This document shows positions 57,840-59,701 of a stretch of 64,000 bases of DNA, in pieces. The translations under genes were made by a program, and so were the position numbers. The stretch lies in NCBI RefSeq assembly GCF_054482595.1, contig NZ_CM137008.1; one strand, 5' to 3'. The notes beneath the pieces are model-generated. The model saw only the letters and a list, made by a program, of their open reading frames with translations, searched no databases and was not told where the DNA came from. Each line of letters begins with the position of its first letter. Position 1 is the first letter of the stretch.

Positions 57840-58162
57840 TCATATATGGCAAACTGTAATACAGTCTCTTGTACTGAAAAGGATTCTGTATAGAATAGAA
57901 CCTGTATTCATATCAGCACAAGGGACCACCAAATCCCGGCAACATTCCTTACGTCAGTTATCCCGCATCACCCTGTGGGTGCGGGATTTTTTATGATGTT
58001 TCTTTTTATTGAATATATATAAATAACGAATAACTGCGGATTCTGATAATCCACCTGCAGGGAGCAATCCGGTAAACATTTAATACATCAGTTAATATCG
58101 TTTTGCCTTTTTAACAAAGAAAATATTCATGGAGTAAGTTCCCGGGCATTTGCCCGGGATGA

Positions 58163-59428
58163 TTACTGTTTTAATGGATTATTAATCTTTGCATATTCAA
58201 ATGGACTGATAAATTTTTCTCTGTTTGCATCCAGAAAATCGGCCCACCATTGTAGCATCAAGCGGCGTTCTTCCAGATGCTCTGCTTTATGAATGTAAGC
58301 AGCACGTACACCGTTACGTTCCTGATGGCTCATCTGACGTTCCACAGCATCGCGGGACCACAAACCTGATTCAATCAATGCACTGCACGCCATCGCCCGG
58401 AATCCATGGCCACAGACTTCCTGGGTTGTGTCATACCCCATCACCCTCAGGGCTTTATTTACAGTATTTTCACTGATTGGTTTACGCGGGTCATGTGCAC
58501 CCGTAAATATCAGACCATTTTCACCTGCCCATGTCTGAAGTTCTGTCAGTATGGCTACAGCCTGTTTGCTGAGTGGCACAAGATGTGGTGTTCGCATCTT
58601 GGAGCCCCGGTGTGAGAATTTTACGCCTGGCAGAGGTTCGCGTTCGGCTGGAATAGTCCACTTGGCATTGTCAATATCAATTTCAGACCAGCGGGCATAT
58701 CTGAGTTCACTGGAACGAATAAAAACCAGTAAATTCAGCATAACTGCCAGTCGGGTGACAGGCTGGCCTTTATAACCGTCAATACGCGACAGAAGTTCAG
58801 GCAAGCGTGAAAGATCCAGAGCAGGGCGATGCTGGCGTTTTACCGTGGTCAATGCACCAGCCATATCCAGAGCCGGGTTATATCTGATGATGCCTGACTG
58901 TACGGCATAACGCATTACAGCAGATATTCTTTGCTGCAGACGACTGGCGATTTCATAAATTTGTTTTGCTTCTGCAGCACGAACAGGGATAAGCAGATCC
59001 GGGGTATTGAGTGTTGTGATATCCCGGTTGCCGATAAAGGGGAAAACGTGTGTCTCGAGGCTTTTGAGTACTTTATCGCTGTGTGATTGTGCCCATTGTT
59101 TATTACTGGCATGCCAGCGTCGTGCAATATGTTCAAAAGAGAGCTGTAAATCAGGGACAACTTTTTTAACTCTTTTCTGTTCGCAAGGGTCAATCCCTTC
59201 TGAAATCAGTTTTCGGGCCTCATCCCGTTTTGTACGAGCTTCGGAGAGAGAAACTTCTGGATACACACCAAGTGCCAGAGTCTTCTCCTTACCCAGAATA
59301 CGATAACGGAGACGCCAGTAACGGGAACCATTAGGATGAACCAGCAGGAACATGCCGGCCCCGTCAGTGAGTTTATAAGCCTTGTCAGTGGGCTTTGCAG
59401 CCCGGATTTTTGCGTCAGTCAGTGCCAT
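58163..59428 (-). CDS. P4-type tyrosine integrase (phage/island integrase)
   Basis: 421 aa; N-terminal MALTDAKIRAAKP...FLLVHPNGSRYWRLRYR and C-terminal catalytic region; start about 200 bp from the tRNA-Phe 3' end. Confidence 0.9.
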   Translation of the reverse strand: MALTDAKIRAAKPTDKAYKLTDGAGMFLLVHPNGSRYWRLRYRILGKEKTLALGVYPEVSLSEARTKRDEARKLISEGIDPCEQKRVKKVVPDLQLSFEHIARRWHASNKQWAQSHSDKVLKSLETHVFPFIGNRDITTLNTPDLLIPVRAAEAKQIYEIASRLQQRISAVMRYAVQSGIIRYNPALDMAGALTTVKRQHRPALDLSRLPELLSRIDGYKGQPVTRLAVMLNLLVFIRSSELRYARWSEIDIDNAKWTIPAEREPLPGVKFSHRGSKMRTPHLVPLSKQAVAILTELQTWAGENGLIFTGAHDPRKPISENTVNKALRVMGYDTTQEVCGHGFRAMACSALIESGLWSRDAVERQMSHQERNGVRAAYIHKAEHLEERRLMLQWWADFLDANREKFISPFEYAKINNPLKQ

Positions 59429-59589
59429 AGTTCAGCCTTCTGAATGCGTTAAAGAGGGTACAAATTCTGTCGAACTGGGGTATACCCGCAATTATACCCA
59501 CACAATGAGGTTGATGTGGGGGGAATCTGGTTGAGTTCGGTAGAATTGATTTGGAGGCAGAACGCTTAAATTGTGGCGTTCTGAAACGA

Positions 59590-59616
59590 AAAACGGACCT
59601 CCGTGGAGGTCCGTTG
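59590..59616 (-). terminator. hairpin immediately 3' of tRNA-Phe
   Basis: Minus strand reads aacggacctcc-ac-ggaggtccgtt followed by TTTTCG. Coordinates approximate. Confidence 0.5.
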
Positions 59617-59625
59617 ATATGAATT

Positions 59626-59701
59626 TGGTGCCCGGACTCGGAATCGAACCAAGGACACGGGGATTTTCAATCCCCTGCTCTACCGACTGAGCTATCCGGG
59701 C
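59626..59701 (-). tRNA. pheV: tRNA-Phe (anticodon GAA)
   Basis: Reverse complement reads GCCCGGATAGCTCAGTCGGTAGAGCAGGGGATTGAAAATCCCCGTGTCCTTGGTTCGATTCCGAGTCCGGGCACCA; pheV rather than pheU is inferred from the yqgA-speC-nupG neighbourhood. Coordinates within about 1 bp. Confidence 0.93.

Follow-up and report, generated by a model that had tools for sequence, protein, structure and literature searches.

A GI-pheV-class genomic island with a P4-type integrase and a rare, mostly metabolic cargo at the pheV tRNA gene of Escherichia coli

The 64,000-nt stretch analysed here, referred to throughout as the window (contig NZ_CM137008.1 of NCBI RefSeq assembly GCF_054482595.1), contains the junction between the E. 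coli chromosome and a genomic island at a tRNA-Phe gene. ARAGORN and Rfam agree on a single tRNA gene in the window, an intact tRNA-Phe with the anticodon GAA on the minus strand at 59626–59701 (68.3 bits with the Rfam tRNA model), which has the same sequence as the tRNA of island-free genomes; the Rfam scan of the window returned nothing beyond it. One side of the tRNA is chromosomal backbone (59702–64000), made up of yqgA (59807–60514, minus strand), yqgH (60668–60751, plus strand), speC (60913–63048, plus strand) and the 3′ part of nupG (63098–64000, minus strand), which runs to the window end. Because of the yqgA/speC/nupG flank, the tRNA can be identified as pheV. The other side begins with a tyrosine integrase gene on the strand of the tRNA, after which accessory DNA fills the window down to position 1. 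A preliminary description, made from the letters alone, had pointed out this arrangement, with the integrase gene within about 200 bp of the tRNA and the core genes yqgA, speC and nupG beyond it, and had read the tRNA as the pheV island site. All of this holds, the spacer between tRNA and integrase gene being 197 bp and the core genes extending from 59807 to the window end.

Of 5,426 complete E. coli genomes, 5,425 contain the backbone segment. Genomes free of the island align with the window starting only at 59618–59626, which is the 3′ end of the tRNA, and strain TUM13936 provides an empty pheV site with the order yghD, native hairpin, pheV, yqgA. Where yghD abuts pheV in this way, the accessory DNA is missing. 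Comparison with an island-free pheV locus, a check proposed at the outset, thus places the junction at the tRNA 3′ end. Moreover, most of each 20-kb cargo segment is held by only 7–17 of the 5,426 genomes, so the accessory content is not a universal feature of this site, as would be the case if all E. coli lineages carried it here.

The integrase gene, intP4 (58163–59428, minus strand), is an uninterrupted open reading frame of 421 codons' worth of protein (421 aa) that starts 197 bp past the tRNA 3′ end, directly 3′ of pheV. Its product was assigned with Pfam, NCBIfam, PHROG and an alignment with phage P4 Int. It displays the Pfam domains PF13356 (Arm-DNA-bind_3), PF22022 (Phage_int_M) and PF00589 (Phage_integrase), and further matches the NCBIfam integrase domain PRK09692 and the integrase family PHROG 1. 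The best characterised relative is the integrase (Int) of phage P4, with 55.4% identity across 97% of the length (E = 1e-152), which bears out the P4-type assignment of the preliminary description. In the full-length alignment, IRSSEL (Arg), GSKMRTPHLVPL (Lys), HGFR (His-x-x-Arg), SHQERN (His) and RAAYIH (Tyr) are kept between the two proteins; from general knowledge of tyrosine recombinases, we take these motifs to be catalytic. The protein thus has the arm-binding, central and catalytic domains and the R, K, HxxR, H and Y residues of a P4-type integrase. At the nucleotide level, the gene is 97.8% identical to the intP4.5 reference of strain 55989 and 94.1–95.8% identical to the alleles of CFT073, H10407, APEC O1 and Sakai. 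The alleles intP4.1–4.5 have a within-allele divergence below 1%, and at 2.2% from 55989 the window gene is best described as intP4.5-like but beyond the within-allele range, a distinction that concerns sub-typing and not membership of the class.

The tRNA-proximal attachment (att) core consists of the 23 nt with which the tRNA ends, at 59626–59648; its plus-strand sequence is TGGTGCCCGGACTCGGAATCGAA. Its length follows from island copies within tandem arrays, which match the window exactly up to 59648 and not further, and from the repeats in relatives. The 23-mer, perfect or with one indel, bounds the island in strains SM107, 4FM and Santai, as it does at the 10 distal junctions surveyed, and it is the same 23-bp repeat as published for islands at pheV (GI-pheV; PMC11537424). 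The preliminary description had anticipated an att repeat of 18–25 nt from the tRNA end; such a repeat does exist in relatives, and its length is now refined to the 23-nt core. The same description had found no second att repeat in the window, and there is indeed none: the 25-mer that it quoted occurs once, at 59626–59650, and no second copy is present in the window at up to three mismatches or up to four edits including indels. Ungapped searches with the tRNA 3′ end also gave no second copy in the window or in 4FM. The ungapped search missed the distal copies because those carry a 1-nt deletion, and alignment together with an indel-tolerant search recovered them in relatives. A further repeat, D9 (11445–11466 versus 59611–59632), was considered as an att remnant and rejected, as it shares 7 nt with the core and lies inside a citG gene 98% identical to the core gene.

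The spacer between tRNA and int is more than filler and holds a predicted terminator hairpin and arm-type repeats. The hairpin with its T-run (59582–59615, minus strand) is located 11 nt past the tRNA 3′ end; it was detected in a terminator scan as a 10-bp stem followed by TTTTTCGTTTC, and its RNA fold has an energy of −25.5 kcal/mol (z = −4.1). The empty site has a different, native hairpin there, and the island hairpin, which is kept in all five reference intP4 classes, takes the place of the native pheV terminator. A motif scan further revealed three arm-type repeats, GNGGGTAYA, just upstream of the int start codon (59454–59501), namely a tandem pair with 12-bp spacing on the minus strand (59481–59501) and an inverted copy on the plus strand (59454–59462). 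The motif has four matches in the whole window, three of them within these 48 bp. The arm repeats are kept in CFT073, H10407, APEC O1, Sakai and 55989, which stand for the five reference intP4 classes; some of them read GGGCATA there, nearer to the GGGGGCATA of P4. A second tandem arm pair with an equal 12-bp spacing is found 52–53 bp inside the distal repeat of SM107 and 4FM, so that the pair on the int side is ~125 nt and the pair on the distal side ~52 nt from the core. On sequence evidence, arm repeats such as those of an attP site thus flank a core taken from the tRNA 3′ end, and their binding by Int is putative.

The preliminary description had the island reaching at least to the window start, over more than 59 kb, and relatives show how far it goes beyond. 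The island body inside the window (1–59625) amounts to 59.6 of ~81.4 kb and is syntenic with SM107 and 4FM at 99.99–100% identity. In SM107, which is 99.99–100% identical to window positions 6001–54000, pheU and cadC enclose the element, and two perfect 23-bp repeats, at a distance of 81,162 bp from each other, form its limits. In 4FM, the island is at pheV, and the distal repeat, 85,124 bp away, has one C deleted, a variant that matches the published attR of GI-pheV (PMC11537424). When the 4FM and SM107 copies are compared, homology sets in precisely at the core and persists at 99.98% across 18.4 kb, whereas the two strains have unrelated DNA beyond the core. The counterpart of window position 1 is position 6434 of the SM107 locus L009; from this, the distal core is predicted to lie 21.76 kb left of the window start, and the element to measure ~81.4 kb. 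At all 10 surveyed distal junctions, the repeat lies 110 bp past the last island gene, and in nine of them it carries a 1-nt deletion. What follows it is either the native pheV terminator (in yghD or kps contexts) or the relic of an older island (in cadC contexts). The preliminary description had called for a search beyond the window, and each of the relatives examined does carry, where it was expected, a direct repeat of the 3′ end of the tRNA. In the window's own strain, the distal repeat is predicted to read TGGTGCC(C)GGACTCGGAATCGAA, with the GCGGGTATA/GAGGGTACA pair as its neighbour on the island side.

The distal module, which lies outside the window, encodes YagK/YfjJ, DUF932, antirestriction, RadC/JAB, CbeA/CbtA and DUF4942 proteins, the adhesin Ag43, a YeeP-like GTPase and AlpA. 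The last of these is a helix-turn-helix protein of 69 aa that belongs to the AlpA family (Pfam, 5e-9), matches excisionase PHROGs and is 30% identical to P4 Vis (E = 1e-9); in SM107, its gene is ~5.3 kb left of the window start. In 4FM, a second island of 23 kb comes after the distal repeat, and beyond it a third repeat, degenerate in sequence, adjoins the empty-site flank on the side of yghD. This second island (NZ_CM137007.1, 787465–810768; loci L002 and L004), in tandem between yghD and the main island, codes for an AbiEii/AbiGii toxin, a DEAD/DEAH helicase, AAA ATPases and a TerB-family protein, a defence-like set, and for a frameshifted integrase. The repeats upstream of that integrase gene differ from those of the main island (they are GGGGC-rich), and the 23-nt core is shared.

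With a single patch of 660 bp set aside, only 0–1 single-nucleotide polymorphism (SNP) across ~57 kb sets the window apart from 4FM, SM107, GTEN_97 and Santai. The chromosomal flank, by contrast, is 1.7% divergent from that of 4FM, and the near-identity of the island copies next to a divergent flank shows recent horizontal spread. The same island is found at pheV (window and 4FM) and at pheU (SM107 and the cadC-proximal unit of a long pheU array in Santai), and the near-SNP-free copies come from unrelated strains isolated from mink, duck, chicken and humans. The patch (57557–58219) has 82 differences (~12%) from 4FM, SM107 and Santai and none from GTEN_97. It covers the end of a phosphoethanolamine-transferase pseudogene, the intergenic region and the last ~19 int codons, and is a small gene-conversion or recombination tract. 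The divergence at 57–59 kb had also been considered as a sign of two int alleles; this was rejected when mapping confined it to the 660-bp patch, which reaches only those last codons of int.

Two of the relatives have more complex arrangements. In GTEN_97 (NZ_CP113493.1; loci L006 and L028), the int end of the island adjoins the pheU flank (dicD, dsbD) and the distal repeat adjoins the native pheV terminator and kps genes; this hybrid arrangement implies that a large piece of the chromosome was inverted between the two tRNA-Phe loci, which are themselves in inverted orientation. GTEN_97 was accordingly rejected as a pheU insertion, its distal end being on the pheV/kps flank, and SM107 is the clean pheU case. 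In Santai (NZ_CP007592.1; loci L005 and L012), the island is cadC-proximal, and at least 55 kb of other islands lie between it and the tRNA. The extra content of this array includes autotransporters, a polysaccharide lyase, a second dcuC, malic enzyme, sodC and a group II intron.

We consider it very probable that the window takes in 59.6 kb of a GI-pheV-class island of ~81.4 kb, along with its junction on the tRNA side, and that Int integrated this island at the 3′ end of pheV. This reading is built on the anatomy of the locus, the homologies, the geometry of the repeats, the repeat-to-repeat limits in relatives, the occurrence at both tRNA-Phe genes and the near-zero divergence of the copies, all of which are direct observations. 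The element would have a circular form carrying an attP whose 23-nt core is identical to the tRNA-Phe 3′ end, and its P4-type integrase would carry out recombination between that core and the pheV 3′ end. As the island itself provides the 3′ nucleotides that are exchanged, along with a terminator hairpin of its own, the tRNA remains whole. The tandem arm repeats with their 12-bp spacing would be the place where Int assembles, and strand exchange would take place within the 23-nt core; excision would require Int and the AlpA/Vis-type excisionase homologue. Since the tRNA-proximal copy of the core is always perfect and most distal copies are without one C, attP probably carries the one-C-deleted variant of the core, with the crossover 3′ of the deletion. 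Binding and catalysis by Int, as well as present-day excision, may be supposed from the sequences compared here, and the identical, exactly core-bounded elements at pheV and pheU lend indirect support to integration and excision catalysed by Int.

Several observations weigh against this interpretation. Excision in the window's strain is putative, and the distal att, alpA and ~21.8 kb of the island are outside the window and predicted from relatives. No candidate passed a sigma-70 promoter scan upstream of int; a perfect TATAAT is located inside the first arm repeat upstream of the gene, without an acceptable −35 element. The annotation of the island shows neither conjugation nor mobilisation genes that would provide a route between cells. 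Finally, most distal repeats have the 1-nt deletion and the int of SM107 is frameshifted, which implies that copies decay into fixed islands.

Some of the same evidence speaks for the alternative that survives best, namely, that Int integrated the island long ago or in another strain and that it is now fixed and non-excising, being inherited vertically or moved by homologous recombination of large fragments. GI-pheV islands largely co-evolve with the core genome and a third of them are without a distal repeat (Nhu et al., PMC11537424). The 1-nt deletion in nine of 10 surveyed distal repeats, the SM107 frameshift and the lack of annotated transfer genes are likewise consistent with a fixed island. 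However, the window int is intact with all catalytic residues, the copies reside in unrelated backgrounds and at two tRNA genes with 0–1 SNP in ~57 kb, and the limits of the element are exact at the core. Together these features argue for very recent site-specific movement, and we regard a fixed island as possible, if somewhat unlikely.

Homologous recombination between pheU and pheV islands could also have brought the cargo to pheV, with int and the distal yee-type module serving as homology arms. Indeed, the 660-bp recombinant patch overlaps the 3′ end of int, the hybrid flanks of GTEN_97 indicate that recombination between pheU and pheV does occur, the int genes of different islands are 94–98% identical and the yee module is widely shared. 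Nevertheless, crossovers in arms of 94–98% identity would leave a chimeric int or yee, whereas the pheV and pheU copies show no mosaic break anywhere in int, the spacer or the distal module and stay identical as far as the 23-bp core on both sides, where the identity ends, which makes this route quite improbable. Lastly, that the element is a degraded P4-like phage satellite, a prophage or an integrative conjugative element (ICE) is hardly credible: it has a P4-type Int, a Vis/AlpA homologue and a distal module resembling CP4-type cryptic elements, and ICEs such as ICEEc2 use pheV and pheU too (PMC11537424), but tblastn with all 14 P4 proteins against the window and the SM107 distal part recovered only Int and Vis (no primase alpha, sid, delta, psu, epsilon or cI), and the annotation of the 81-kb element, read from repeat to repeat in SM107 and 4FM, lists no genes for a capsid, tail, relaxase, coupling protein or type IV secretion.

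The window island can be compared with the published GI-pheV collection. Nhu et al. (PLoS Genet 2024; PMC11537424) found GI-pheV in 62% of reference genomes, at sizes of 9.7–110 kb, with intP4 as the only conserved gene, repeats of 23 or 19 bp, modules separated by insertion sequences (IS) and distal yee and flu modules. In agreement with this prevalence, int homologues covering at least 80% of the gene are present in 3,296 of the 5,426 complete genomes (61%). The window island follows the published pattern in being located directly 3′ of pheV with intP4 as its first gene and the conserved hairpin/arm-repeat spacer between them, in its 23-bp tRNA-3′-end repeat including the published one-deletion variant TTCGATTCCGAGTCCGG-CACCA, in its IS-separated modular cargo with distal yee and flu (Ag43) modules and in its size; the nearest reference allele is intP4.5 of strain 55989. 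It departs from the pattern in being found at pheU as well and in its cargo, which consists of cit-acnB, malX, dcuC, yjh, mtnK/mtnA, pepT and nhaC and not of pap, sat, iha, iuc, LEE (the enterocyte-effacement locus) or a type VI secretion system. These cargo modules are not mentioned by Nhu et al. (PMC11537424).

With the integration module of P4, the island shares a core from a tRNA 3′ end, a three-domain Int with the same catalytic residues and a Vis/AlpA homologue. The annotated attP of P4 places one tandem pair of arm repeats with 12-bp spacing at 53 nt from the core and a second pair on the int side at 113 nt, and the island layout matches it, with arms ~53 nt from the core on one side and ~113–125 nt on the int side; the island's GGGYATA also resembles GGGGGCATA of P4. 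By contrast, the target of the island is tRNA-Phe (pheV/pheU) and not leuX, its core sequence differs, and at 81 kb, compared with 11.6 kb for P4, it is without genes for replication, immunity and helper exploitation. Other islands with a P4-like integrase beside a tRNA-Phe target are the she pathogenicity island (PAI)/SHI-1 of Shigella flexneri, OI-122/SpLE3 and LEE (review table, PMC7545054). SpLE3 of Sakai has the same tRNA-int spacer as the window and an int gene 94.9% identical at the nucleotide level. Excision of the she PAI, dependent on Int and a recombination directionality factor (RDF), was reportedly described by Sakellaris et al. in 2004. Most SpLE3/OI-122 copies are without a distal repeat (PMC11537424). 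Whereas the window cargo is metabolic, the she PAI, OI-122/SpLE3 and LEE carry virulence cargo. The distal module of the island, outside the window, matches the yee and flu modules of the K-12 cryptic elements CP4-44 and CP4-57, from which the island differs in integration site and cargo.

The part of the island inside the window is a mosaic of metabolic modules split by IS remnants, with a mean GC content of 49.0% and individual modules ranging from 39% to 54%. The accessory DNA was correctly described at the outset as IS-rich: at least 10 IS-derived segments, namely, ISEc38, IS1, ISEc16, three IS66 remnants and smaller fragments, make up 14.6% of positions 1–59625. The suggestion of a pathogenicity or fitness island was borne out as far as a pheV island is concerned; the annotation of the window shows no recognised virulence gene, and the cargo is metabolic. 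The gene assignments below derive from annotation, supplemented with family searches where indicated.

The most distinctive module (3860–14746; annotation and NCBIfam) consists of a GntR regulator gene on the minus strand and, on the plus strand, genes for an Amidohydro_2 lactonase-like protein and a major facilitator superfamily (MFS) transporter, followed by citCDEFXG and acnB. The Amidohydro_2 protein matches the 4-sulfomuconolactone-hydrolase family at 8e-40, which is below the cut-off, and the MFS protein is of the anion-symporter type. With 98% (cit genes) and 97% (acnB) identity to the E. coli core genes, which have their own usual loci, the island versions are second copies; they are fused into a single array in which the citG stop and the acnB start are 25 bp apart. 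Eight contexts were read, and the nine-gene GntR-cit-acnB unit is the same in each, its left neighbour differing in one; an extra acnB is present in ~20 of the 5,426 complete genomes. A literature search for cit/acnB cargo gave no relevant result. There are two copies, 83% identical to each other, of a 41-nt sequence that contains a near-perfect palindrome, AGAACTCCGTCTA...TAGACGGAGTTCT; the first (14811–14851) comes directly after acnB, and the second (26002–26042) is at the edge of a remnant of the IS66 family.

Two further modules lie between this unit and the yjh genes. The first (19415–24076, plus strand) contains genes for a malX-like phosphotransferase system (PTS) component IIBC, a MalY/PatB-like protein and an orphan protein of 629 aa (22187–24076). 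The orphan has one WP accession, labelled ‘alpha-galactosidase’ in 4FM and ‘enterotoxin’ in SM107 by the Prokaryotic Genome Annotation Pipeline (PGAP), but searches of NCBIfam, PHROGs, PDB sequences and Pfam (with a cut-off as loose as E ≤ 10) left it without a match, so that both labels are unsupported. The second module (26349–29996) comprises an M20-type amidohydrolase (NCBIfam TIGR01891), a DcuC transporter and a LysR regulator.

The sgcR-yjhIHGF set (34238–40659, plus strand; sgcR, yjhI, yjhH, yjhG and yjhF) shares only ~92% identity with its K-12 counterpart from the KpLE2 region and is thus a divergent paralogous set. Its yjhI is destroyed: an IS1 at 35338–36105 takes the place of 564 bp of the gene, and the missing target-site duplication suggests an IS1-mediated adjacent deletion. 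The IS1/yjhI junction is absent from every complete genome searched and is thus private to the window's strain. Next to it (41006–46197) are genes for a yjhU-like regulator, a GRP sugar transporter and a fuculose-phosphate-aldolase-like protein, followed by mtnA and mtnK; this set resembles the ‘DHAP shunt’ of extraintestinal E. coli (dihydroxyacetone phosphate; salvage of 5-deoxyribose and methylthioribose). Nearer to int (47396–56225) are an ompC paralogue, ISEc16, an MFS transporter gene with pepT, a psiE remnant, nhaC and a second MalY/PatB-like gene. The ompC paralogue (47396–48508) is intact, encodes 370 aa at a GC content of 44% and lies between a TnpB/InsQ pseudogene and ISEc16; this block is found at ~95% identity in other genomes without the remaining island. 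The phosphoethanolamine-transferase pseudogene (56619–57839, plus strand), assigned by synteny from the PGAP annotation of 4FM, Santai and GTEN_97, is part of the conserved int-proximal segment, and a remnant of it adjoins int in H10407 too.

Two bolder ideas can be linked, namely, that the island still hops between the two identical tRNA-Phe genes and that the nine-gene unit is a newly assembled catabolic operon; that both hold is, in our estimation, unlikely. Under this combined view, the unit, made of duplicated Escherichia core genes and three foreign genes, may serve the fermentation of a tricarboxylate, or of its lactone, that is normally beyond the reach of E. coli. A possible route would lead from isocitrate lactone through isocitrate and citrate to oxaloacetate and acetate, the substrate being a speculation from gene content alone.

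Overall, the arrangement is a textbook one and leaves the understanding of genomic islands unchanged: GI-pheV with intP4 occupies pheV in ~60% of E. coli, and the window provides a clean example of that class. The analysis also spells out the P4-like geometry of the arm repeats and the island-supplied tRNA terminator that are common to the five intP4 classes. What is new is a member of the class with a rare, mostly metabolic cargo. Its least ordinary features are the presence of a near-clonal, non-conjugative element of 81 kb at both tRNA-Phe genes of unrelated hosts and the composite cit-acnB module. A rare and nearly SNP-free island at both pheV and pheU is a good natural case on which to test whether Int moves such large, non-conjugative islands today, and its cargo, the cit-acnB unit above all, might widen the range of carbon sources available to E. 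coli.

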